Shown piece by piece: positions 3,230-40,610 of a stretch of 64,000 nt of DNA. The DNA is from a phage. The position numbers and the translations under genes were made by a program. The DNA lies in sequence record PX423614.1. One strand, written 5' to 3'. How positions within the stretch are numbered: the stretch's first letter is position 1; the number at the start of each line of letters is the position of its first letter. Below the pieces are notes generated by a model. That model searched no databases. It saw nothing but the letters and a program-made list of their open reading frames with translations, and was not told the origin of the DNA.

Positions 3230-4039
3230 CTTCCTATATCGGTTGAACATGGTGAGCAATAATAACCATTGCAAGCTATGCCAGATAAAACGATGTAAGG
3301 CGCTCTAGAGTATCAGAGGAAACCGCTTTACAATCCCTTACTGGAAACGACACCACTGATAAATGAAGTTATTGAGTACATGCAAGGCTTAAGCTAATCG
3401 CCTACGGTTAAAGGGTAGCGGCGGCGGTGCTAGTAAAGTGCTACAATAATAGACGTTTATCGGGGTAGTTAAGTCCGACGAATTAACGCTCAATAGCGAG
3501 CGGCGGGAGGGGGTTAAAGAATGGCAAATTGCTATTTAACAATAAGGTTTAAGCGTGAGTATTTACTAAGTGAGTGTTTTGATACACATCAATAGCGATG
3601 TGAGTACATAAACATGTAGTGTAGTAAATCGTGAGAGAGATAATCAAACGCCAAAGTATCAGGCGGTCAATGACTCTTTACCATATGCTTTCCCATAGTA
3701 GGCGATAAGCAGGTTTAGAGAGTTGATATAAAAGGGTATCACGAAGCGAAAGCAAAGTAAATAGTAATGCCATCGGCTAGAAATTTAGCTAATTAGAGAT
3801 GGACGCGCTTGCCTTATTGTGATGATTGATCATCGCTGGCAAATCGGCTTTGTTTATAGCGATTAGTTAAATCCACCAGATGAAACATCACGGCAAGTTA
3901 GGCGGCAAGGTTAACTCCTGATAAGACCGCCTGATTTACCACTGGTTACTAGTAGTTAGTGATTAGTGTTAAGTCATTGTGACTTGAATAGCTCATAGAG
4001 AGCGGCGCATAGTGCGTTTACAATTGAAAGGTGAATATC
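3230..4039 (+). other. ~800-nt untranslated leader / candidate non-coding RNA region downstream of tandem promoter-boxA modules
   Basis: no ORF of 60 aa or more on either strand in the track; recurring motif GC(G/T)TTTACAAT at about 3019, 3339 and 4011; GCGGCGG-rich segments. Confidence 0.35.
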
Positions 4040-6293: not shown

Positions 6294-6452
6294 CGTAGCT
6301 AGTGATGCCTAAAGGGAACCCCCTTTGTGAATCATTGGCATGGTTCAATCCCTATTGGATGGTCATTTGACCGGGCCTTTAACGAGGCCTCTTTTTTAAG
6401 AGTCTTTACGAGGATTCTTAAATGAGTGAGGTCATGTTCACTCTTTCAGGTC

Positions 6453-6479
6453 GCCCCGTCTTCGGATGGGGCTTTTTTA
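6453..6479 (+). terminator. rho-independent terminator
   Basis: GCCCCgtcttcggatGGGGC followed by TTTTTT. Confidence 0.65.
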
Positions 6480-6530
6480 TGCCCGTAAAACAGGGGGTAG
6501 TAAGTTCTGATAACGACAGCCCAGCTACTT

Positions 6531-24154: not shown

Positions 24155-25945
24155 ATGTCAAAGATCATTTTGGGAGACACAGGCTGTAAAGAGTGTATCT
24201 CTCATGGTCGTGATAAGACCCGCAATCACATGATTCTCTTCCGAAATGAAGAGTCCGGTGAGGAGTGGGGTTCATGTAACAGATGTGGTGCGTATGAAAT
24301 CTTCGAGAAAGGAATGACGCCCACTCCTAATGAAAAGAAAGAGCTGTCCCCTGAAGAACTCCGAGAAGTCTTAGACGATTGCTTAGAGCTTCCTCAGGGA
24401 GAGTTGACCCGTCGCTTAATTCCTAAAGCTGTATCTGAACGCTATGGATGCCGTATTGGTTTAAGTCAAACAGACGGTCAAACTCCTGACAGCTACTTCT
24501 TCCCTCGCGAACGTGATGGGAATATTGTTGGATATGAAGTAAAACTTCTAGACAGCAAGAAATTCTATTATGTAGGTAATGTGAAAGAAGCCGACTTATT
24601 TGGTATGGCTCAAGCACAACGTGGCGATGTTTACAATAAGAAGCTCTTCATCTTTGAAGACCCACTCTCTTGTATGTCTGGATTCCACGTACTTACTGCG
24701 TTCACAAACGCAACTAATATCAAACCTGCTTGTGTCTCTCTTCCGTTCGGTGCAGGTTCAATCTCTTCTGTGTTGTCAAGAAATCGTGATTTTATTAATG
24801 GTTTCGAGGAGATTGTACTCTGCATGGACAATGATGATGCAGGCGAGATTGCATTGACTAAAGGTCGTTCTCTGTACCCACATGTCAAGTTTGCAAGAAT
24901 TCCAAAAGGTACGTTTACTTACAACGGACAGGAAAAGGAAATCAAAGATGCAAACGACATGTTACTGGCAGGGAGAGGTCAAGAGCTTTTCAATAATCTG
25001 AAGTATTCAGCTAAGCGGGAATCTCCTGCTGGAGCTGTTACAGTTTTTGATTGTCTTGAAGACGCTCTGAAGAAAGCGGAATGGGGTATCCCTTATCCGT
25101 GGAAAACTCTCAATGACATGACCTTTGGTATTCGTTGGGGGGAGATGGTTGCAATCGGCGGTGGTGTTGGTTCAGGTAAAACCTTAATCGCACACGAACT
25201 GGTAGCATGGCTTTGCCTTGAGCATGGTTTTAATGGTGGTGGCTTCTTCTTGGAAGAGAAGGTAGGCATGTCTGTTAAGAACATTGCTGGCAAGTCTGCA
25301 TCTGTTCCATTTCACCGACCGGATGTTGAGTATGAAGAAAGTCAGCTACGAGATGAAGCACTTCGATACGCTGATAAGTTTTTCTTGTACGACAACTTTG
25401 GACAGAATGAGTGGGAAGACATTAAGCAGTGTATTCGCTTTTGGGTAGTTGAGAATCAATGTAAGTTTATCATCCTTGATAACATCACTGCATTGGTATC
25501 TCACTTAACTCCATCCGAAGTGAATACAGAAATCAGTAAGATTGCTTCAGAGCTTGCTGGTATGTGTAAGGAATTAGACTTCACTGCTTTTGTGTTATCT
25601 CACTTGAATGCTCCGGCGGGCGGTGCCCCTCACGAAGAAGGTGGTCAGGTTAAAGAAGTACAGTTTACTGGCTCACGTTCATTAATGCGCTGGTGTCAAT
25701 GTATTATCGGTTTCGAACGTAATAAACAAGCGGATGGGTTAGGTAAAAACTTGTCAATCATACGTCTGCTCAAAGAGCGTAACTATGGACAGACGGGGGT
25801 TTGCTATACCAAATATATTAACGAAACAGGTCGTCTTGTAGAACGAGAAGATCATGAAGTTGATGAAGATAATCCGTTTACAGTCACCAACGGAGAAGAT
25901 GCAGCTTCCTTACTTTCACAAGAAGGGGAGGCACGTCCGTGGTAA
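24155..25945 (+). CDS. bifunctional DNA primase/helicase (T7 gp4-like)
   Basis: N-terminal Cys4 zinc ribbon (CKEC...CNRC), primase-type acidic motif MDNDDAGE, Walker [10 protein letters not shown], Walker B IILDN. Confidence 0.8.
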
Positions 25946-26487
25946 AGAAACTGTATGCGTTTGATATTGAAGGTGATAACCTCTATGACGGTATTCAGAA
26001 TGTCTGGTGTATATGGATATTTGATGTACTGTCTGGAGAACGGTGGGGGTATCGCCCTCACCAAATTGAAGAAGCACTACACAAACTGAAAGAAGCTGAT
26101 GTAGTAATAGGTCACAATATTATTGATTTTGACCTTCCTGCTTTGTTTAAATTCTACTCTCATGTGATACCTTTTCGTTTTAATGTCTTTGATACCCTGT
26201 GCCTGAGTCGATACCTCAAGCCTGACCGTATTGGTGACAGTCCAGAATACCCCAAAGGCGACCCTAGACATGGCCCTCGCGGTCATGGCCTCAAGCAATG
26301 GGGCGAATTTCTGGGAGAGCTGAAGGGTGATTATGGCGAACAGGAAGAAGCATGGGATGCATTCACTGAAGACATGTTCACATATTGTGAGCAAGACGTT
26401 AACTTGACAGTTAAGGTTTACATGTGTCTTTGCCAAATGGCAGGATTTGATTATAGAAATCCCCCATCTCTCAACTGGAAAATGTAG
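25939..26487 (+). CDS. DNA polymerase family A 3'-5' exonuclease domain, encoded as a separate gene
   Basis: Exo I FDIEGD, Exo [10 protein letters not shown], Exo III YCEQDV; aligns with T7 DNA polymerase residues ~1-190; GTG start overlapping helicase stop; TAG stop at 26485. Confidence 0.75.
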
Positions 26488-26489
26488 AA

Positions 26490-27962
26490 ATGATTAAGAT
26501 TCCATTGTCTGAATTGAACCTTCAAGAAGGAGAAGCCCTCAGTGTAGGGCTTGACCTGATTCGTAATTTGATCAGAGATAACGTAGTCCCTGATGGCATC
26601 TATCCTGTTATTGCAGGTGGTGCTATCCGTGATACGTTCTTCCAAAATAGAACTCCGAATGATGTTGATATCTTCCTAGTTCAAGGAGGGTTTCGTTGGA
26701 ACACTCGTCAGGAAAACAGCCCTGCTAACGTAGGTAATGCTGCACTTTTCCTTGACAACTTCTTATCTTGGACAGAAAGTAAGGGGCTTCAGGTTACATC
26801 TCGACTAATTCAGCCTGTTAACGGGACAACCTATGCTGAAGCGCTTTTCACTTTCCAAGAGATTCTGGAAATTGAGATTGATCAAGTTAAAATCCAGATG
26901 ATGATTAATCTACCTTTGGATATGGATACTTTAAGCCGTCGCTTCCCTATGATCTGTCAAGGGTTTATGACTCTTGGTAATCTGTATGTGTCAAACGAAG
27001 GTTTGTTTGCAATGTCATACACTCGTGACATTCCTGTGGTATCTAGTCGTGAAATGAAGTACGTTCACAAGAAGTGGCCTGAAGCAACTGTTGCAGTTTA
27101 TAGCAGTTCTACCGAATATATGCACCTTGCAATGGGAGCTTTCGGTGAGCCAGAAGTTCACCTGATTAGTGATTTAGTTGGACCTATGGCTGGTGTAAAT
27201 TTATATCAGAATCAGCGTCGTCATTATACCCTGAAGATGATGGAAACTATATTAAACATTCCTCAGGAAAGGGGTCGTAGTTATCTGGACGAGGAAGTTA
27301 ACCTACAGACAGAATGGTCTAGTGGATTAACCACTATAGGTGCTGAAGCAATCACGCAGCCTTGGACTCCGGGAACTAACAGACGAGATCTTCAAGCTTT
27401 TAATGAAGAAACTTCTCGAACAGTTCGAGGAGGTGTTGTAGGGTATAACGTACAACCTCATGAAAGACCTCGTGACACTTTCACTGGCAGTTTTGGTAGT
27501 GCACGCTCTTCTGGAGTGGATACTCGTACATGGCATGTCCAAGGAGGAACTGCTCGTCCTATTCCCTCTCCGTCAATGGATGATTTGCAGCGTTCTCGTC
27601 GTTCATGGGAAACAGTAAGCTCTGTTGTTCAGGGTCTACGTGCTAGAGATATTGAACGTGTAGAAGTTGGTGATTTGCCAACCCCTACAGAAGATCGAGT
27701 ATCAGCTATAGCGGCTCGTGAAGCTGCTCATATTGGTTTTGCATCATTAACTAATGACGCTAACGAAGCTCCTCGACCTGTTGGTCGTCGTAATGGTCTA
27801 GCTCACTCTGACACTGCACTTGGTGCAGAACTACGAGCAGCAGCTCGTGAGCTATCTGGTGAGCTTCACAACAACCTAGCAGGTGTTACACTATCTCGTG
27901 AAACAGCTCGTAATATGATTAATAATTTGGCATCATCTGTACAAGGAAACAGAAACTCATGA
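26490..27962 (+). CDS. polymerase-beta superfamily nucleotidyltransferase with disordered Arg/Ser/Thr-rich C-terminal half
   Basis: VIAGGAIRD...NDVDIF matches the GG...DxD head-domain signature of CCA-adding/poly(A) polymerase-type nucleotidyltransferases. Confidence 0.45.
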   Translation: MIKIPLSELNLQEGEALSVGLDLIRNLIRDNVVPDGIYPVIAGGAIRDTFFQNRTPNDVDIFLVQGGFRWNTRQENSPANVGNAALFLDNFLSWTESKGLQVTSRLIQPVNGTTYAEALFTFQEILEIEIDQVKIQMMINLPLDMDTLSRRFPMICQGFMTLGNLYVSNEGLFAMSYTRDIPVVSSREMKYVHKKWPEATVAVYSSSTEYMHLAMGAFGEPEVHLISDLVGPMAGVNLYQNQRRHYTLKMMETILNIPQERGRSYLDEEVNLQTEWSSGLTTIGAEAITQPWTPGTNRRDLQAFNEETSRTVRGGVVGYNVQPHERPRDTFTGSFGSARSSGVDTRTWHVQGGTARPIPSPSMDDLQRSRRSWETVSSVVQGLRARDIERVEVGDLPTPTEDRVSAIAAREAAHIGFASLTNDANEAPRPVGRRNGLAHSDTALGAELRAAARELSGELHNNLAGVTLSRETARNMINNLASSVQGNRNS

Positions 27963-28492
27963 GTCTTTTAGGTTCTCAAGAATTACACAGCGTTATCGAT
28001 AATGGCTTTTTAGATGCGGAGCATAAATATGTTAACGCTGCTAGCGTGGATATCCGTATTGGTGATACTATCCTTGTTGAAGAACAGGCTGATGGTATTG
28101 TTGACATTGATGCTAAAGAAAACCTCAAGTGGAAAGAAGTGAAAATCCCTGAAGATGGCATTGTCATTACTCCGGGACAGTTCTTCTTAGCTCACTCTAT
28201 GGAAGAATTTAACCTTCCAGACAATATTTCAAGTCTGTTTGTACTCCGCTCCTCAATGGCTCGTTGTGGTTTAAACCACTTACATGCTGGGTGGGCTGAT
28301 GCAGGGTTTAACAGCAGTAAGCTAACCTTTGAGTTCCATAACGTTACCCACAATCACAGCTTACGAGTTCGTGCTGGGATGCGTGTTGGTCAAATGGTTA
28401 TGTTTGAACACTCTCACGCTGGTGATGATTCCTATGCAGTGAAGGGTCGTTATAATAACTCTGATGGGGTTGTTGCTTCTAAAGGCGTATAA
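27959..28492 (+). CDS. dcd: dCTP deaminase (Dcd)/dUTPase superfamily protein
   Basis: aligns with E. coli Dcd: ASVDIRIG, ITPGQFFLAHS, RSSMARCGL, AGWADAGF, catalytic-Glu block TFEF, GMRVGQMV. Confidence 0.65.
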   Translation: MSLLGSQELHSVIDNGFLDAEHKYVNAASVDIRIGDTILVEEQADGIVDIDAKENLKWKEVKIPEDGIVITPGQFFLAHSMEEFNLPDNISSLFVLRSSMARCGLNHLHAGWADAGFNSSKLTFEFHNVTHNHSLRVRAGMRVGQMVMFEHSHAGDDSYAVKGRYNNSDGVVASKGV

Positions 28493-28708
28493 TTGATGGA
28501 GTTTGGAACAATGAAAAGACGTTGGGTAGTCCGCGTTCACTGGAGCAGTGGTACAGAATCAATGGGTATCAGAAACACTCGTCAAGAAGCTCGCGCTCAT
28601 AAGAAGTTCTTATTAAGCTGCGAAAGTACTATTGACAAGATCACTATCCACAAAGCTCAGGACTTTAAATCAGGTCGTTTCTATATCAGCGGAAAGGTAC
28701 ATTACTAA
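28493..28708 (+). CDS. small protein, KVHY-tail family copy 1
   Basis: W.VRV.W...TRQEAR...I.IHK...KVHY pattern shared by four ORFs. Confidence 0.5.
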   Translation: MMEFGTMKRRWVVRVHWSSGTESMGIRNTRQEARAHKKFLLSCESTIDKITIHKAQDFKSGRFYISGKVHY

Positions 28709-28914
28709 TGGCTAAATTATGGGCAGTTCGTGTTAAATGGGCTAACAAAGATCTTGGTGGTGATTGTCTTAAACTGTTTGACACACGACAAGAAGCTCGT
28801 CTTGCTAAGAAAGCTACAAAAGCTTTAGGTCTCGCTGAAAAAGTAGAGATTCATCGTTGGTTTCAAAATGATAATAACAGTGCAGGATCCTTGACTAGCA
28901 AGGTTCATTACTAG
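28708..28914 (+). CDS. small protein, KVHY-tail family copy 2
   Basis: LWAVRVKW...TRQEARLAKKA...SKVHY. Confidence 0.5.
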   Translation: MAKLWAVRVKWANKDLGGDCLKLFDTRQEARLAKKATKALGLAEKVEIHRWFQNDNNSAGSLTSKVHY

Positions 28915-28966
28915 TTGGTAGTAGATATGATAACTCTCAAATGTATATACAGTATAAGAATATTGT

Positions 28967-29314
28967 ATGAAACAGGAGAGAGTTATGTTAGATTTGAGTA
29001 AAGTGGCCCCGCCATCTGAAGAGATTAGCAAAGCTAAAGTTATGCAGCAGTTCTATCATCGTGATATGCTTGGTCGTTATATCAAGAATCGTGATGTTGT
29101 TGCATGGTCTATTGGAAATCAAGGTTATCTTCTCAAAGTGTTGCAAGTTACTGGCTCAACAGCCAAGCGAGTCAAAGTCTATGACCCTGAAATGGGGCGT
29201 TCTAAATCAGTAGACCCTCAGAATTGCATTGTTATCACACAACAGGTCATGGATAACATTGCTCGTAATGTAGCTAATTCAACTAACTTAGAAGGGGATG
29301 CACCTAATGCATAA
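28967..29314 (+). CDS. hypothetical protein
   Basis: ORF track; AAATGTATATA motif about 25 bp upstream. Confidence 0.45.
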   Translation: MKQERVMLDLSKVAPPSEEISKAKVMQQFYHRDMLGRYIKNRDVVAWSIGNQGYLLKVLQVTGSTAKRVKVYDPEMGRSKSVDPQNCIVITQQVMDNIARNVANSTNLEGDAPNA

Positions 29315-29873
29315 TAATGTCTTCGACTTACCTGAACTAACACGAGTGGGTTCTAGCAACCCATTCTCTACTACTGACTCTTCTATCTCTCGTCTTGAGG
29401 GAATGAATAAACTGATTAGCGGTAACAGCTTAGAACACATCTTGTGTGGTGTGCAAGCTAACCTTGAACTTCTACACATCAAAGCAAAGAACTACCACTG
29501 GAACGTCTCTGGAGCTGGTTTCCAAGGTGTTCATGGTATGTTCGATGAGTTAGAAGATTATGCTCGTGAGGCAGGCGACCGAATAGCAGAGCGTATGCGC
29601 TTTCACTGTGTTAAAGTGGATGCTACTGCTAGTAACTATTTAGGTCATGCTTGGTTCCGAGAAGGTAACGCTGATCTCGACATGGACGGTATGCTTTCCG
29701 ACATGTGCATGACTCTGATGTGTATCATTGAAAAGATGGACGAGTTTGATTCAGACTTGTGCACTTATCCAGTTGACCAGAGTATGCTTCAAGAAATTAA
29801 TGAAGGTCTTGGCAAGTTCTGCTACTTCGTCAAGAGCAACATGTCCCACTCCAGTGGTGACGTGTCTTACTAA
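29298..29873 (+). CDS. Dps-like ferritin-superfamily protein
   Basis: HWNVSGAGFQGVHGMFDELEDYAREAGDRIAER matches the Dps signature H-W-N-V-x-G...H...F.E...E; alternative internal start at 29403 possible. Confidence 0.55.
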   Translation: MHLMHNNVFDLPELTRVGSSNPFSTTDSSISRLEGMNKLISGNSLEHILCGVQANLELLHIKAKNYHWNVSGAGFQGVHGMFDELEDYAREAGDRIAERMRFHCVKVDATASNYLGHAWFREGNADLDMDGMLSDMCMTLMCIIEKMDEFDSDLCTYPVDQSMLQEINEGLGKFCYFVKSNMSHSSGDVSY

Positions 29874-29930
29874 TCAAACCTCCGCCCTGTCTCTTTGTTT
29901 AAGAGGTGGGGCGAACTTCTTTATAAGGAT

Positions 29931-30116
29931 ATGAGTATGTTTTCAGCAATCGTATGGTCTGTATGGGCAATTCTTGTTGGTGGTATCGTTTATCTGGCTC
30001 AGAAGCAGATGCTTAAAGAGAATCCGAATGATGCTAAACCTATTAAACATGGCAGCATTGCTCTGGTAATTTTCTCTGTTGTTATTCCTTTCCTTCTCCA
30101 CCTGTTGACTGCATAA
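29931..30116 (+). CDS. small membrane protein (two helices), tandem paralog 1
   Basis: AAGGA RBS; hydrophobic helices; paralog of the following interrupted gene. Confidence 0.5.
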   Translation: MSMFSAIVWSVWAILVGGIVYLAQKQMLKENPNDAKPIKHGSIALVIFSVVIPFLLHLLTA

Positions 30117-30125
30117 GGGTTTGAT

Positions 30126-30315
30126 ATGATTTCACTGATTGTGTGGGCCGTGTGGTCGTTAATAGTTGGTACTGTTATATATATATAAAGCTCGAAATTT
30201 AGCAATTAAAGAAAACCCAGCAGAAGAGGATGTTAAAGCTATCAAGCTAGGTAGTGTTGTTCTGGTACATTTTGCTATAACACTACCTCTTGTTATTATT
30301 CTTTGTATGCTATAA
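30126..30315 (+). pseudogene. frameshifted tandem paralog of 29931-30116 (interrupted at an (AT)5 tract)
   Basis: frame 0 stops after 20 codons within ATATATATATA (30177-30187); a +1 shift restores a C-terminal half similar to the upstream paralog. Confidence 0.4.
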
Positions 30316-30505
30316 GGAATCCAAAGAGTGAAACTAAACCTACCTGAAGAATTACAAGCACATGCCATTATCGTTAGTGGCTGTGTGATGGGTCTTGGTC
30401 AGACAAAGAAGATTGCTCATGACTTAGCAAAAGGTCAGTATAAATCTTTTATTGTTGTTCCTGCTACCCAGCGTCATATCAACCTGTTTATTAACAAGGA
30501 ATAGA

Positions 30506-30781
30506 ATGAGTAAAGTAATTAAGTTTTATAGTAATTCATGTGCTCCGTGTGCAGCTATGGCTCCTGTGTTTAAGAAGGTTGTGGCTGACTATAGTGTAGA
30601 AGTTGAAGAAGTAAATATCTCTGAAGGTGATGGTCGAGAGCGAGCCGTTGAATATGGTGTTCGCAGTATCCCAGCCTTTGTCGTCCCTGATAAGAACAGT
30701 GGTGCTCATTATAGTTTATCAGGTATGCAAACTGAATCTAATCTCCGTGCATTTTTAGACACGGCTCTGAAAGGTATTTAA
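30506..30781 (+). CDS. thioredoxin/glutaredoxin-like protein (CxxC active site)
   Basis: KFYSNSCAPCAAMAP CxxC motif in thioredoxin-fold position; downstream IPAFVV cis-Pro-like motif. Confidence 0.5.
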   Translation: MSKVIKFYSNSCAPCAAMAPVFKKVVADYSVEVEEVNISEGDGRERAVEYGVRSIPAFVVPDKNSGAHYSLSGMQTESNLRAFLDTALKGI

Positions 30782-30782
30782 T

Positions 30783-30998
30783 ATGGAAAAGAAACCTTGG
30801 ATTACTTTTTGGGTAGTTAAGTGGTTTAATTTTGATAGCACAATCCCTAGCCTCTCCTCGTACACAACACGGAGAGAGGCTCGCCGCTTTAAGCGAGCTT
30901 TAAAAATTGCTAACACTGGTGCTTCTAAGATCACAATCCAGAAAGGGATTGAAACAGAAAGTGGAAGCAATCTGATTTATAAAAAGATTTACTATTAA
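30783..30998 (+). CDS. small protein, KVHY-tail family copy 3
   Basis: WVVKW...TRREARRFKRALK...ITIQK...KKIYY. Confidence 0.5.
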   Translation: MEKKPWITFWVVKWFNFDSTIPSLSSYTTRREARRFKRALKIANTGASKITIQKGIETESGSNLIYKKIYY

Positions 30999-31013
30999 AG
31001 AATAGGTGCTATT

Positions 31014-31226
31014 ATGACTCAAGGAAAAGATGTGTATTTTTGGGCTGTTGTTTCTGAATATCCAGAGATGGAGTATCCAAGGGTTAACACGTGTGCTACT
31101 CGTAAAACTGCACGATGCACTAAACGTGCCCTCAAGAAGATGGGTCGTGATTCGAAGATTTCAATCCACCGTGCATATATGACAGCAGCGGGTTTCATTG
31201 TAGTAACACCAAAAGTTTATTATTAA
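31014..31226 (+). CDS. small protein, KVHY-tail family copy 4
   Basis: FWAVV...TRKTARCTKRALK...ISIHR...PKVYY. Confidence 0.5.
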   Translation: MTQGKDVYFWAVVSEYPEMEYPRVNTCATRKTARCTKRALKKMGRDSKISIHRAYMTAAGFIVVTPKVYY

Positions 31227-31240
31227 GGAAGAGTTCAAGG

Positions 31241-31891
31241 ATGAATGAACAATTACAAGCAACACTAATTGAAGCAATGGGAAATGACAAAACCGTTGTT
31301 AACGCAGCTCGGGTTTCTTTTGGAGTCACTCGTGAAGGAGAGTTAAATGAACGTGATGAACGCCTTATCAAATTCCTTGCCAGAGAAAAACACTGTACAC
31401 CATTCCGTCATCCGACAATTAGCTTCCGATGCAAAGCGCCAATCGCAATTGCGAGGCAGCTGGGCAAGCATCAAGTTGGATTCTCGTGGAACGAAATGTC
31501 CCGGCGGTATAAAGATGGAGCAGTTGAACTCTTCATCCCTAAAGAGATTTTTGAAAGACCTTCGGACCTCCATGCAGGTGCGGGGAATCTCCTCACCACA
31601 GGAGCACAAAACTCTGCACTAGTCCTGATTAATCGGGCATATGAAACAGCTCTTGAGTCATATGATGAGTTGATTAAGTTCATCGCTCCAGAGCAAGCTC
31701 GATTCGTACTACCTCAGGGAATGATCACTGAGTGGGTGTGGACAGGCTCTTTATATGGTTGGTCAGAGTTGTGTCGTCAGCGACTGTCCGACCATGCTCA
31801 GTATGAAGTACGAGTGTTCGCATCAACGGTCGATGAAGAGCTTCGTAAACTTTTCCCAATCTCATGGGACGCACTACGTGAAGCCCACTAA
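31241..31891 (+). CDS. thyX: ThyX-like flavin-dependent thymidylate synthase homolog with divergent RHR motif
   Basis: KHQVGFSWNEMSRRY resembles the ThyX signature RHR-x-x-S-xxxx-S-x-RY but RHR is replaced by KHQ. Confidence 0.5.
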   Translation: MNEQLQATLIEAMGNDKTVVNAARVSFGVTREGELNERDERLIKFLAREKHCTPFRHPTISFRCKAPIAIARQLGKHQVGFSWNEMSRRYKDGAVELFIPKEIFERPSDLHAGAGNLLTTGAQNSALVLINRAYETALESYDELIKFIAPEQARFVLPQGMITEWVWTGSLYGWSELCRQRLSDHAQYEVRVFASTVDEELRKLFPISWDALREAH

Positions 31892-32063
31892 AGTGTGTAG
31901 CTTCTGTCAAAAGCAGAAGCTTCTTATCAATTTCAAGCTGAACGAGGAAACAGGTTTGGGTCATGCTTTTTGTCATGATTGCAGGTACTACCTTGAACAG
32001 AAGCAACACATAAACTGGTTGCATTACTACAAACCTAACACCTACAAGCACAAGGTTATCTAA

Positions 32064-32543
32064 ATGAAAGCTATTTTTGAAGGAAGAGAATATGATGTTC
32101 CTGAGTGGACCAAATACATAGCCCGCGATTGTGATAATCAGGTTTGGGCATATGGAAATACACGACCTATGTTTAATGAAAACACTGGCAGTTGGTCTAA
32201 TATGTCAAAACTACCGGGATATATTCGGTTGCTTGGTTCTTCTAGGCGTCCTGTAGGTTTCGCTGCTGACTCTCTTGTTGAGGTCGGTGTTGAAAAAGGG
32301 GTAGACAAGCCAGAAACAATTTGGGTATTGTCTTCGAGTACTCCAATCAAAGGGAGTCGTGGGATTTCCTTCTACGTTGAGCCTGTCGCTTACTTCAAAA
32401 AGAAGCCAACCACCAACTCTCTGATGTTAAAGAACATTCCTTATTCCCAAGTTGCTACTCTGTTAGATAATGGAACAGTGCTTGTTGAGAATAATGGGAC
32501 AAATCAAATCTTTTATGATTTAGAAGAAAGGGTTTTGGAATGA
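32064..32543 (+). CDS. hypothetical protein
   Basis: ORF track. Confidence 0.5.
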   Translation: MKAIFEGREYDVPEWTKYIARDCDNQVWAYGNTRPMFNENTGSWSNMSKLPGYIRLLGSSRRPVGFAADSLVEVGVEKGVDKPETIWVLSSSTPIKGSRGISFYVEPVAYFKKKPTTNSLMLKNIPYSQVATLLDNGTVLVENNGTNQIFYDLEERVLE

Positions 32544-32860
32544 TCAACAATAATACATTTAGGACTGGTAACGGAAATGAAATCAGTCCTGCTGAAGTGA
32601 TTAAACGACACAGAACACAGATGCTTATCCACTCCTATTTGTATTATTGGTTGGATGACCCAATCTGGTCTGACGATAAGTGGCAACAAGTGGCTGATGA
32701 CTTAACCACCTTGCAAGAGATGTATCCTGAGCCTATTGGATTCTTCGATTCAGAGTTCAATGGATGGAATGGCTCCACTGGTATGCATCTTCCTCATGAC
32801 GAGCGTATAGCTTGTATGGCTACTGAAGTATACCGTTTACATAAGGACAAATCAATCTGA
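32540..32860 (+). CDS. hypothetical protein
   Basis: ORF track; overlapping start/stop. Confidence 0.5.
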   Translation: MINNNTFRTGNGNEISPAEVIKRHRTQMLIHSYLYYWLDDPIWSDDKWQQVADDLTTLQEMYPEPIGFFDSEFNGWNGSTGMHLPHDERIACMATEVYRLHKDKSI

Positions 32861-33038
32861 AATGTTTTAAATGTGAATCAACTCTTCTCCATTTGGACTC
32901 GAAAGTAATACGGGAGCTTGCCAAAGGCTCCCCGACTAAAGGGAAGAATAAGAAGTTTGTCGAAATTAAGGTTATAGGTATCCATTGCTCAGAGTGTAAA
33001 TCCTGTAGCTTCTTATATGAAGAACACGGAGGTAGGAA

Positions 33039-33776
33039 ATGAGTCGTAGAGAATCTCGGAAAGCATCACGGAGAGAATTACGTCGTGAAGCTCTCGTCAC
33101 CAAGAAAGGAAAGCGGGAATTTGAAGAAGTAGTTCTTGCTAAGCCGGTAGTACCTCAGAACCAATTCCAGAGTGAGCTGCTTGATGCAATTAAAACCAAA
33201 CAGGTTGTATTCACAGATGCTCCTGCTGGTTGTGGTAAGACCTTCGTAATTACTTCTACAGTAATTGATGCTCTGAAGAGTGGGAAGATTGAGAAGATTA
33301 TCCTAAGCCGGCCTGCTGTTGGTATGGGTAATAGTCTTGGATTACTTCCCGGTGGGCTTCGTGAGAAGTTTGAACCATACCTAATGCCAATCGTTGATGT
33401 TATTACTCAGCGCTACGGTAAAGGTTTCTACGAATGTCAAGTAGGTAATGGTAATATTGAGTTCGTACCTCTGGAATATCTACGTGGTCGCTCGTTCAAC
33501 GATGCTGTCGTGATTGTTGATGAGTTCCAGAACACTACTCCTGATGAAGCATATTCAATCATGACACGTCTTGGTGAAACCTCTCAGATGTTCTGCATGG
33601 GGGACACTAACCAGCACGACATGCGTGGTGAGAGCGGTCTTGATTGGGCTACTGATTTCATCTACCGTCACCAGTTATTTGAGTTTGCCGCTCTAGTAGA
33701 TGGCGAATCAGATGATATTGTTCGTTCAGGTTTCTGTAAAGCTATTGTTAAAGCAATGGAATCTGAAAAATCATAA
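33039..33776 (+). CDS. phoH: PhoH-like ATPase
   Basis: Walker A DAPAGCGKTF, Walker B VIVDEFQN and overall PhoH-family pattern. Confidence 0.7.
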   Translation: MSRRESRKASRRELRREALVTKKGKREFEEVVLAKPVVPQNQFQSELLDAIKTKQVVFTDAPAGCGKTFVITSTVIDALKSGKIEKIILSRPAVGMGNSLGLLPGGLREKFEPYLMPIVDVITQRYGKGFYECQVGNGNIEFVPLEYLRGRSFNDAVVIVDEFQNTTPDEAYSIMTRLGETSQMFCMGDTNQHDMRGESGLDWATDFIYRHQLFEFAALVDGESDDIVRSGFCKAIVKAMESEKS

Positions 33777-33823
33777 ACATAATGTATACTCCTTAGTGTA
33801 CACTGATATGTTAAGGAGTTGTG

Positions 33824-34138
33824 ATGACCGATAAGGCGAAACGTGATTATGCACAAGAACGAAGAACTGCAATCGCAAGGGGTGAGACCGGCGTTGGTAG
33901 CAAGAGCGGAGATGCTCAGCGCCACCGTGCACGTCGCATCGTTGAAAAGCGCGATGGAAAAGCTGCTGTCCGAGGTAAAGATGTTGGACACAAACGATCA
34001 ATCAAGTCGGGAGGTTCTAATGCGTCAAGTAACTTACGTGTTGAATCAGTCTCTCGAAATCGCTCGAACGGCGGCAAAAGTGGAGATCGTGCTGGAAAAT
34101 CAGCAGGCGGTCGCAAAGGAGCTTTAAGCTCAAGTTGA
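33824..34138 (+). CDS. highly basic Arg/Lys/Gly-rich protein
   Basis: AAGGAG RBS 9 nt before ATG; TAATGTATA motif 36 bp upstream; an alternative overlapping frame (33843-34127) also stays open. Confidence 0.45.
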   Translation: MTDKAKRDYAQERRTAIARGETGVGSKSGDAQRHRARRIVEKRDGKAAVRGKDVGHKRSIKSGGSNASSNLRVESVSRNRSNGGKSGDRAGKSAGGRKGALSSS

Positions 34139-34708: not shown

Positions 34709-35062
34709 ATGCCAGTACCTCAACGCCTAGAACGTCACTGCGTTCTCAAATGGGATAATATTCATGATAACCTCTCTATTCAAGAGTTTCGTCAGTTTAT
34801 CGAATTGACAGCGAAGATTAACCGAAACCAACCAGCTCGAAACTTTGTGGTGGTTAGCGATAAGTATCCAGAGCTGTATGAGCAGGTGTGGGGGATGAAA
34901 CTAGCACAGGTTCAGAGGAATAGTAATGAACGGAGAGAAGCTCGTAGACAGCGAGCAGAAGATGTTCCAGCAGTCTTTTATGTGGATGAATTGGCTGATT
35001 CATATGAAGCTTTAGATATTGTTGAAGACAACCAAGCATTCACAGATTTAATATACCAATAA
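34709..35062 (+). CDS. hypothetical protein
   Basis: ORF track. Confidence 0.5.
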   Translation: MPVPQRLERHCVLKWDNIHDNLSIQEFRQFIELTAKINRNQPARNFVVVSDKYPELYEQVWGMKLAQVQRNSNERREARRQRAEDVPAVFYVDELADSYEALDIVEDNQAFTDLIYQ

Positions 35063-35075
35063 CTATAAGGAGTGG

Positions 35076-36770
35076 GTGATGGATAACCCTGATAAGTTAC
35101 CTTTCATAACGGAGATGACAGTCGCTGATATAATCTCAAAACAGGCGAAGCATGGAGTCAACTTCAACAGAAGAAACGCTCGGTGGTTTGTTCACCTTCT
35201 CAAAGAGATTATTGTCAATATTGATAAAGAACTGATTCCTCTCCTCCCCAAAATGCGGGTGGATGGTTCAACTTATTCCAAACCTTTTAAGAAGTCCGGT
35301 GCTTTACAGAAGTGGCCTCAACTCTATTGTGATAGGGTTGGTCTTAAAAGAGAAGATATCGGTGGGGCGTTTACTTGCGTTGAGTATGTAGACTTTGACC
35401 CATCAAAAGATGCACGTATCAAAGAAGCCTTGATGGATGAAGGTTTTATACCTCCAGAGTGGAATTATTCTAAGAAACCTTGGAATACTTTTGAAATTCG
35501 TAAAGCTATGAAGAAGTATGGTACATACTCTGCATGGTATTCTGCTTGGATTCGAGGTAACGCTAAAGAGAAACAGACAGCAGAGATGATAGATGCTGAT
35601 ATCCGAAGGTTTTTGGATAAACACTTCCGTTATCATACTGTCAATTATATGAAAGCCTATGTCAGCGGTTTAGGTCTTAACCCTAACAGGAAGAAGCCTG
35701 TAACCTTTGATGAAATCAAAAAAGTTTTGGCTACATCAAACAAGTGGCCTACAGCCCCTACAAACCTTGAGGAGACTCTTGAAGAGGGGCTTGGGGGTGA
35801 GCTAGGGGGTGTAGGAAGTTTGCTTAAGAGACGCGTTGTAGCGGCTCACAGGCTAGGTTTGATTAGCGGGCTTATCGACAAGGAACGTAAAGATGGTAAG
35901 TTGTCCGCCGAAGCTAATAGCTGCGCTACTCCGACATTTCGTTTTAAACATCGCATTGTTGTTAATATTCCTTCTCGCGGTTTGTTTGGTCACGAGTGCC
36001 GCAGTCTTTTTCAATCTGACTATTCCTCAGACGATAGTCATAACCATCCTTTCATCATTACCAACCATATCCCTGATGGGTGTTACGTACGAAAGGGTAC
36101 TAACATTATCTATGAAATGGGAAAACCGGGCAAGAAAGACAAACCAATAGGTGCTTATAAATTTTATGTACCTGCTGGTCGTGAAGTCTTCTTAGGTTAT
36201 GATGGCTCTGGTCTTGAGCTGAGGATGCTCGCTCACTACCTTATCAAAGAGTGTCGTGAGATGCTCGCTGAAGCAGAGCGGGAAAACAACCCAGCTAAGA
36301 AACGGGAAGCTGAACGCGGTCTAGCTTCTGCTGTTATGTACAGAGATATTCTTTTAGAAGGAGATATTCACTCACATAACCAAAAACTTGCTGGCCTTCC
36401 TACTCGTGATAATGCTAAAACATTTATCTACGCATTCAACTACGGAGCTGGTGACGCTAAGTTAGGAAGCATCGTAGGTGGTGGCTCTGACGAAGGGGCT
36501 ATCATGAGAGCAAGATTCTTAGCAGAGAATCCTTGTATTGCAATCCTTATTGAACGTATGACAGAGAAAGCACAAAGTGGATATATCTACGGTGTGGATG
36601 GACGTCGTATTACAATGAGAAGAGATGCAACTGGAAAGGTTATGGTCCATAAAGCCTTAAATACGCTCCTACAGAGCGCTGGGGCGATTGTTATGAAGTA
36701 TGCAATGCTATTCCTCAATAAATGGATTGAGCGTGATGGTGTTCGTTGTGCGAAGGTTATCGACATGCAT
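35076..36770 (+). CDS. DNA polymerase family A polymerase domain, exon 1 (thumb, palm, fingers through motif-C His)
   Basis: aligns with T7 DNA polymerase and Klenow: motif A DGSGLELR, motif B RDNAKTFIYAFNYGAG, KALNTLLQSAGA; exon ends at the motif-C His codon CAT at 36768-36770. Confidence 0.8.
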
Positions 36771-37378
36771 AAACTTTCATTGTGCATGTAAAAGTTGGTG
36801 AACTCGGTGAAACCCTACCATTAAGTTGGGGGCAATACCGAGCTAAGCTATTAGGAGATGATATGGCTAAGAAAACTCTTGTTTTGGAAACAACCGAAAC
36901 AGGGTGTATCATCCCTATCTCACACAAACTTAACAAAGATGGTTATTTCAGAAAAGTAATAGATGGCAAATGGGTCATGTATCATAGATATGTTTGGGAA
37001 GAATCTTTTGGTTCTATTCCTGATGGTTATGAAATAAATCACAAATGCAAGAATAGGGCTTGTTCCAATCTTGAGCACTTAGAAATGATTGAAGGTTCAG
37101 AACATGCAATAGAATCAAACACTGGAAGAAATGGAGATAGACAAGAAGCTGCAAGGCTTTATTGGCTAGAAACAGAATGCTCTGGTGTACATCTTGCAGA
37201 GAAGTTTGGTGTGAGCTTCGGAATCGGTTGTAGATGGATTCGGAAGTGGAAAGTGTAGAGACTATCCTAAGGGAGTAGGGGGTTAACAGGGAAACCCTCG
37301 AAGCGCCAACAACAGCAAATTAGCTATGCTGTTATGATATAGTCCGATACCCGAAGTAATTTGGGAATAACATAAATG
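36771..37378 (+). mobile_element. group I intron interrupting the polymerase gene at motif C
   Basis: 5' exon ends in U that can pair with intron GUGCAU to form P1 with a U-G wobble; intron ends in G; R-like AGACTA and S-like GATATAGTCC core elements; exon 2 resumes with DEGQFTVHRDDV matching Klenow DELVFEVHKDDV. Confidence 0.65.
36864..37258 (+). CDS. intron-encoded HNH homing endonuclease
   Basis: GYEINHKCKNRACSNLEHLE HNH motif; TAGGAG RBS; located inside the intron. Confidence 0.65.
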
Positions 37379-40277: not shown

Positions 40278-40610
40278 AAGTTATTGTTTTAAGTTAAGTT
40301 TTCTTTTGATTTTAATAGAGAATCAAAGTCCTAGGAGTCCTCAACCTAAATCAAGGATTTCCTTAATTCTCTATTTTTATCTCGCAGGTGTCTCCTGCCC
40401 TTCGGTACTTGCAAGGGTTACAATGATTGCCCAATATACAAGCCTGCAATAGCTTTACTAGCTATACCATATATACATTACTACTTGTCATTATCTACTA
40501 CCAAAAAGGTTATAGTATAATAGAACCTTATCTGTATAAGTGTAATGTATATAGTATACAAACCGCTCAAAGAGAGCAACAATCTTAAATCTATATAAGG
40601 AAATATTAAT

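Follow-up and report, generated by a model that had tools for sequence, protein, structure and literature searches.

The 64,000-nucleotide stretch of sequence record PX423614.1, referred to here in its full length as the window, comes from a Kuravirus-like (phiEco32-like, Gordonclarkvirinae) Escherichia coli podophage and carries four short plus-strand open reading frames (ORFs) that encode one family of small basic proteins. The four appear to be expressed middle-class genes, diverged paralogues within a lineage-specific family of strongly basic proteins of about 64–78 amino acids (aa). As to their function, we lean, with considerable reserve, towards an accessory role in the middle replication module through binding of nucleic acid (a polyanion).

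ORF1 (28511..28708; 65 aa, pI 10.5) is a ‘B’ type member and the orthologue of phiEco32 gp70; it matches the profile phrog_4939 with an E value of 7.1e-26. ORF2 (28708..28914; 68 aa, pI 9.8; phrog_4939 E 2.6e-19) is of ‘C’ type and is orthologous to phiEco32 gp69. The second pair consists of ORF3, of ‘E’ type (30783..30998; 71 aa, pI 10.2; E 9.4e-22), and ORF4, of ‘D’ type (31014..31226; 70 aa, pI 9.8; E 1.4e-12). The four proteins thus span 65–71 aa, 7.7–8.4 kDa and pI 9.8–10.5, with net charges of +6 to +9.

The initial annotation had proposed a four-member paralogous family of basic proteins of about 70 aa, and this is borne out by pairwise similarity, by phrog_4939, by a family hidden Markov model (HMM) and by the isoelectric points. 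Paralogue-against-paralogue BLASTP gave 33–40% identity with E values of 1e-7 to 7e-3 (database of 20,000 residues), and the local alignment score of every pair lay 7.5–14.5 standard deviations above 1000 shuffles, so that on formal alignment the similarity is significant for all pairs. The four-protein alignment shows 28–35% identity and 11 invariant columns. All four proteins match phrog_4939 (‘unknown function’) over positions 1–67 or 4–67 of its 67 (E 1.4e-12 to 7.1e-26), and the family HMM, run against a six-frame translation of the window, retrieves exactly these four, the next match having an E value of 0.6. Recent duplication or gene conversion was ruled out: repetition at the DNA level is limited to a 31-nt stretch coding for the TRQEAR motif, and the duplications that gave rise to the family are therefore old.

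Compared codon by codon with their orthologues from 13 further genomes, the four ORFs show purifying selection. ORF1 differs from its counterpart in phage Bas87 by 14 synonymous and 2 non-synonymous changes, giving a ratio of non-synonymous to synonymous substitution rates (dN/dS) of 0.025, and from that in SU7 with a dN/dS of 0.05. Values for ORF2 against close relatives are 0.19–0.35, and those for ORF3 against its orthologues in Bas87 and 4E8 are 0.03–0.27 (0.03 for Bas87); the per-subtype medians of 0.20–0.30 include pairs with saturated synonymous sites. The ORFs are short and peptide evidence for them was not found in the literature, which might suggest chance open frames or mis-annotations, but this substitution pattern excludes such a reading, to which we give practically no credence. 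Protein motifs are kept across orthologues with dS >1 at a dN/dS of about 0.2–0.3, with close pairs at 0.03–0.05, and the phrog_4939 matches reach E 7e-26. Furthermore, ribosome-binding sites precede each start, and the ORFs share the strand of the operon, in which they are tightly packed.

ORF1 had been given a TTG start at 28493, which is probably 18 nt too far upstream; ATG 28511 (MKRRW...) is the most likely start. A GGAG lies 9 nt 5' of this ATG, the GenBank starts of the Bas87 and SU7 orthologues align with it, and nearly all other ORF1-type members start at the aligned Met, without an in-frame start further 5' (4E8, KBNP1711, Bas89, MG49, MG68, P0004, P0006, P0011, P0014 and P0015). The stop codon of ORF1 and the start codon of ORF2 overlap as TAATG, making translational coupling of the two genes likely. 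ORF3 starts 2 nt past the thioredoxin stop codon and has GAAAGG upstream of its start, and ORF4, which has AGGTG upstream of its own, is followed by thyX at 31241. In all, a Shine-Dalgarno-like element is found upstream of each of the four genes.

Residue conservation, charge and helix moments were assessed over 83 distinct family members. W5, T26, R27 and R31 are conserved in 100% of these, A30, K34 and the terminal Tyr (Y68) in 96%, and K/R50 in 95%, and positions 7, 46, 48 and 62 are aliphatic in every member. The core motif accordingly comprises a first W, T-R-x-x-A-R-x-x-K, a [VI]-x-[ILM]-x-[KR] strand, a Gly and the C-terminal Tyr; all four window proteins carry the W, the T-R-x-x-A-R-x-x-K, the [VI]-x-[ILM]-x-[KR] and the C-terminal Tyr. 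Of the motifs listed in the initial annotation, the first W, the TR..AR..K block, the [VI]-x-[ILM]-x-[KR] segment and the final Tyr hold across the family, whereas ‘KV(H/Y)’ in the tail, the ‘IHK’ His and the second W occur in a majority of members only. Every member is basic (pI 9.65–11.03, net charge +4.6 to +10.8). Indels fall mostly in two helix-flanking loops (about residues 14–16 and 38–42), with one gapped column in the loop past strand 3.

Structural modelling was performed with AlphaFold2 for two different paralogues. The ORF1-query model (15 sequences) reached a predicted local distance difference test (pLDDT) score of 76, with the last four residues below 50, and the ORF2-query model (31 sequences) a pLDDT of 85 and a predicted TM-score of 0.69. 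Both show the same topology: a strand at 2–11, a strand at 20–24, a helix at 27–40, strands at 43–53 and 60–62, and a C-terminal strand. The predicted fold is thus a single alpha+beta domain in which a beta-hairpin and one amphipathic helix are followed by a three-strand meander ending in the C-terminal Tyr. From strand periodicity and the predicted strand positions, the first Trp, the [VI]-x-[ILM] strand and the terminal Val/Tyr appear to build the core. The hydrophobic moment of the helix points to 236 degrees and its Lys/Arg moment to 32 degrees; as these are opposed, R27, R31 and K34, together with K35 and K38 where present, are predicted to form a solvent-facing basic stripe. The invariant Thr-Arg at the helix N-cap, with Arg at +4 and Lys at +7, would make up this positive stripe along the helix.

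A basic stripe that is both exposed and invariant suggests that the family has kept a polyanionic ligand, which within a replication module would most simply be nucleic acid. On sequence and model, the nucleic-acid binding at which the initial annotation hinted is plausible. In the mechanism that we propose, the helix stripe would clamp a polyanion, most plausibly the DNA or RNA phosphate backbone during phage replication, while the three loops rich in indels would lend the paralogues their individual specificities or partners. The ORF1/gp70-type paralogue would carry an essential common function, and the other paralogues would be dispensable and exchangeable, gathering in two permissive slots, one after the dCTP deaminase gene (dcd) and one between the thioredoxin gene (trx) and thyX. 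On this proposal the paralogues would divide the labour between them.

Several points weigh against this proposal. Basic charge alone is weak evidence, and the basic stripe could equally grip an acidic protein. No sequence or fold match to a known nucleic-acid-binding domain was found. Arrays that are multi-copy, fast-diverging and variable in presence or absence are more characteristic of genes for host interaction than of those for core replication factors. Homologues of gp69–71 are not among the 34 proteins found in the SU10 lysate/virion proteome, which did contain the products of the neighbouring Dps-like, Trx and gp68 genes (PMC4281155), though proteins of 7 kDa this rich in Lys/Arg make poor tryptic targets.

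Searches for characterised relatives gave little. Pfam, NCBIfam and PADLOC scans of 31 aligned members, together with a sequence-profile search of the PDB, returned nothing meaningful, and neither sequence nor predicted fold reveals a relative of known function. RRM, ferredoxin-like and palm two-layer alpha+beta sandwiches (the PII-like SbtB 6mm2, PsaD, nucleotide cyclase and the reverse-transcriptase palm) scored no better than any small alpha+beta domain would, at 3–18% sequence identity and with no common functional residues identified; in addition, the family has the strand order beta-beta-alpha-beta-beta-beta, as against the canonical beta-alpha-beta-beta-alpha-beta. The AP2/integrase-type DNA-binding domain was considered on account of an F-x-T-x-x-E-A motif and of the HNH endonuclease genes that neighbour the family in relatives, in whose products this domain is C-terminal. 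Both are small beta-sheet-plus-helix units, and the family’s ‘(L)F-x-T-R-x-E-A-R’ recalls the ‘LGTF-x-T-x-EEA’ strand-to-helix junction of the endonucleases; hhalign, however, gave a probability of 8%, neither profile similarity to AP2-type domains nor their layout of a three-stranded sheet followed by a C-terminal helix was found, and this assignment was rejected. Searches of IMG/VR with single divergent members found no more distant relatives. Term matching in the literature found no mention of these genes. The sequences themselves are already catalogued, as PHROG 4939 and as ‘hypothetical protein’ in about 100 GenBank records, and the family is uncharacterised.

The free C-terminal Tyr offers another reading, in which this residue itself matters, either as a substrate of the phage ATP-grasp/amidoligase cluster, in the manner in which RimK modifies ribosomal protein S6, or as part of a RelE/YoeB-like mRNA interferase, YoeB ending in His-Tyr. 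The Tyr is always the last residue in the 96% of members that have it and is accompanied by Lys/Arg invariants, and RimK-like ATP-grasp enzymes are annotated in Kuravirus and in phage 7-11. Yet the penultimate residue is His in only 34% of members, and the ORF2-query model gives the C-terminal block a mean pLDDT of 85, a confident prediction that agrees with the terminal Val/Tyr being structural. We regard this reading as very unlikely. Neither the fold nor the catalytic residues near the C-terminus of a RelE/YoeB/ParE-type (BECR fold) toxin were found in the family. The ATP-grasp substrate was likewise rejected on distribution: among 50,697 phage records the family was found only in Escherichia/Shigella and Salmonella 7-11-type phages, and PaP3/LUZ24-type phages, which carry the same amidoligase genes, are not among its matches.

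To return to the family itself, by sequence search it is confined to this phage lineage and to 7-11-type relatives, and is copy-variable, with 1 to at least 4 copies per genome. Among 1.84 billion representative proteins, searching with a profile gave 22 matches, one of them spurious, leaving 21 real ones, all of 65–78 aa; a word-indexed search of 5.8 billion clusters returned 32. By tblastn against the 50,697 phage records the family was found in Escherichia/Shigella phages only, the Salmonella 7-11 copy having come from the HMM. Wherever the genomic context could be recovered, even for the most divergent members, the gene lay on a Kuravirus-like contig and the synteny was the same. Such counts from protein databases are underestimates, since in two metagenomic Kuravirus-like contigs of 68 kb (L002 and L003) an intact B-type ORF after dcd at 6325–6516 (HMM E 1e-20) was missed by the gene finder of the source.

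A census with the HMM over 16 distinct loci found 1–4 copies after dcd and 0–2 between trx and thyX. The window and Bas87 have two copies in each slot. Three after dcd and one between trx and thyX are found in Paul, KBNP1711 and 4E8; three and none in phiEco32 (gp71, gp70 and gp69), SU10, Bas89 and the metagenomic contig L019; two and none in Bas94, ES17 and SU7; and one and none in Bas92. A 68-kb metagenomic phage has one copy in each slot and a 49-kb one has two and one, and the short contig L018 has four in tandem after dcd, its trx–thyX slot lying outside the contig. PHROG 4939, represented by phiEco32 gp69, gp70 and gp71, is the same family as the window genes and occupies the same slot after dcd; phiEco32, however, has a gp71 type that is absent from the window, and the window has E and D types between trx and thyX that are absent from phiEco32. 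At least six sequence subtypes can be told apart, and their presence or absence differs among close relatives. The B type is the only one present in all of the genomes classified by subtype (14 of 14); C-type orthologues of ORF2 occur in 11 of the 14, and same-slot relatives of the D-type ORF4 in Paul, KBNP1711 and two metagenomic phages.

This pattern lends weight to a host-takeover or counter-defence role, in which every paralogue would act by binding some host protein or small-molecule signal and blocking it, and the array would grow, shrink and diversify in an arms race with E. coli strains. Targets might be, for example, a nucleotide messenger or an acidic patch on an enzyme of defence or nucleic-acid processing. 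We hold this to be possible, and nearly as likely as polyanion binding. The 1 to at least 4 copies, the at least six subtypes and their differing presence among close relatives all fit it, as do the family’s confinement to a single phage lineage (21 real representatives among 1.84 billion proteins) and a small single-domain size typical of phage inhibitors. Furthermore, the BASEL study describes the Gordonclarkvirinae as unusually resistant, to restriction-modification and to most of the tested defence systems, with no modification pathway or inhibitor known (PMC11990801). Nothing ties the family to this resistance phenotype, however, and the products of middle genes would come too late to shield incoming DNA from restriction. 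The genes lie in the middle replication operon rather than in the early host-takeover cluster (PMC8948821, PMC9965538). The B type, universal and strongly constrained (dN/dS 0.03–0.05 in close relatives), is also unlike a typical arms-race gene. No profile or significant fold match to the anti-defence families of PADLOC-DB, Acr or Dmd was obtained, nor any other anti-defence family match; the small alpha+beta phage inhibitors T4 Dmd antitoxin (5hy3_B) and AcrIIC3 (6je4_I) gave fold scores that were not significant, without sequence similarity or a PADLOC match. A combined scheme, in which a core protein and exchangeable paralogues would cover or label the phage DNA as it replicates, or tie up a host factor, and so act as a DNA-protection, DNA-modification-accessory or counter-defence module adding to Gordonclarkvirinae resistance, is a long shot.

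The initial annotation had also suggested that the proteins might be partners of ThyX, Dcd or the polymerase. They might serve Dcd, ThyX, thioredoxin or the split DNA polymerase, all encoded nearby, as dedicated small subunits, or regulate them. In favour of this, every Gordonclarkvirinae locus examined has the family genes tightly spaced with, and often overlapping, dcd and trx/thyX, and the TAATG overlap of ORF1 and ORF2 suggests coupled translation. The comparative data weaken this idea. Close relatives that keep the enzymes have 0–4 copies per site: the trx–thyX slot is empty in phiEco32, SU10, Bas89, Bas92 and Bas94 and holds an HNH gene alone in SU7 and ES17, with trx and thyX intact. 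HNH_3 homing endonuclease genes occupy the slots of the family in some relatives, both after dcd (ES17, 3512–4021 of locus L008; Bas89, 3991–4500 of L015) and between trx and thyX (ES17, 6380–6850 of L008; SU7, 6801–7292 of L014), and in Bas87 one lies in the gap between the ORF4 homologue and thyX (6409–6876 of L001). The window has no HNH gene at these slots, and the equivalent of the Bas87 insertion site is 31227–31240. Because the slots are used by HNH genes as well as by the family, they behave as permissive insertion points. Taken with the variable copies and with a homologue in phages 7-11 and SE131 that lies far from dcd, trx and thyX, this makes the adjacency look like shared permissive insertion slots in one operon rather than functional pairing, and we judge an enzyme-partner role improbable.

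The distant homologue just mentioned is a 73-aa ORF of Salmonella phage 7-11 (Grimontviridae, Moazamivirus; NC_015938 40948–41166, minus strand), detected by the family HMM with an E value of 2e-6. It is unannotated in NC_015938, where it overlaps the end of the annotated gp055, and its product is 98.6% identical to that of SE131, which is annotated. Foldseek independently matched the SE131 protein (E 1.4e-3, TM 0.69). The 7-11 protein shares the K-T-R-x-E-A-R-x-x-K-K motif with the family; unlike the window genes, it is encoded by a single copy near Sir2-like and methyltransferase genes, and it ends in KKVR, not in Tyr.

With regard to transcription, a pattern search located AATGTATA, the core of the phiEco32 gp36-sigma promoter consensus tAATGTAtA, at 28940–28947 on the plus strand, directly past ORF2 and upstream of the gp68 homologue. 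The window contains six exact copies against 2.5 expected by chance, at 566, 28940, 33781 and 40544 on the plus strand and at 40472 and 49774 on the minus strand; downstream of the copies at 28940 and 33781 come homologues of phiEco32 genes 68 and 58/59. In phiEco32 itself, promoters are mapped upstream of genes 68 and 58/59, that upstream of gene 68 being an experimentally mapped gp36-dependent, middle/late promoter with the consensus tAATGTAtA (PMC8948821). We infer that the 28940–28947 element is a promoter in the window phage too; this match to a mapped site would have ORF1 and ORF2 end one middle transcription unit and place ORF3 and ORF4 inside the next. Inside the gene pairs, generic scanning for sigma-70 promoters and terminators showed nothing above background. 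By this analysis the family genes would be co-transcribed with the dcd, exonuclease subunit, Dps-like, trx and thyX genes, and in phiEco32 these replication-module genes are of the middle class (PMC8948821).

The neighbourhood at 26000–34000 is a middle-class replication and nucleotide-metabolism module, and megablast with it matched 99 phage records, all Escherichia/Shigella podophages of the phiEco32/Kuravirus group, with phage AnnaHegner_Bas87 closest at 95% identity. Pfam identifies the 3'-5' exonuclease subunit of the polymerase (25939–26487), dCTP deaminase (dcd, 27959..28492, plus strand; DCD E 1.5e-34), thioredoxin (trx, 30506..30781, plus strand; Thioredoxin E 1e-12), thyX (31241–31891; Thy1 E 1e-42), PhoH (33039–33776) and family-A DNA polymerase (35052–36788). 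The family genes had been placed between the exonuclease subunit and the family-A polymerase, correctly so. They had also been described as two pairs flanking the thioredoxin gene: the second pair does follow trx directly, but the first directly follows dcd, with five other genes before trx. In the loci examined, the primary array always starts right after dcd, or after an HNH gene inserted behind it, and the secondary slot is the interval from trx to thyX.

Other genes of the module also drew attention. A Dps/ferritin-like protein is encoded at 29298–29873 (Pfam Ferritin, E 7e-8) and is labelled ‘DNA binding protein’ or, wrongly, ‘integrase’ in relatives; its SU10 homologue had 36% coverage in the phage-preparation proteome (PMC4281155). 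Two tandem paralogous genes for small membrane proteins (45% identity, E 2e-17) lie at 29931–30116 and 30126–30315, the second of which has, compared with Bas87, an extra TATA in a (TA)n run (about 30176–30179) that shifts the frame and leaves only a TTG-initiated 49-aa remnant ORF (30166–30315). The 106-aa protein at 32540–32860 is the N-terminal Ia (NAD+-binding) domain of NAD-dependent DNA ligase alone (Pfam Nlig-Ia, E 1e-33); relatives call its homologue plain ‘DNA ligase’, and a stand-alone Ia domain cannot make a complete ligase. The 490-aa protein at 26490–27962 is a ‘nucleotidyltransferase’ in relatives and is without a Pfam match in the window; its homologues range from 398 to 490 aa among relatives, and one metagenomic homologue has a weak precomputed Gad2 match. 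In the BASEL paper, the nucleotidyltransferase and Dcd are speculated to point to an unknown DNA modification (PMC11990801).

The finding is real but modest, as small lineage-specific paralogue arrays are common in phages, and should the proteins be ordinary non-specific DNA binders it would be routine. Gordonclarkvirinae are nonetheless common E. coli phages, in use for therapy, with a molecular biology that has received little study, and this family is one of their few lineage-specific gene sets, combining a universal core member with naturally variable extra copies inside the replication operon. The proteins are tiny, the confidence of their predicted structure is good, and T-R-x-x-A-R-x-x-K gives them a clear invariant motif at the surface, all of which makes them a well-defined target, and natural variants with one to four copies occur in an available phage collection (BASEL). 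If it were true that they bind a host target or assist DNA modification, part of the question of how these phages resist bacterial defences would be explained.

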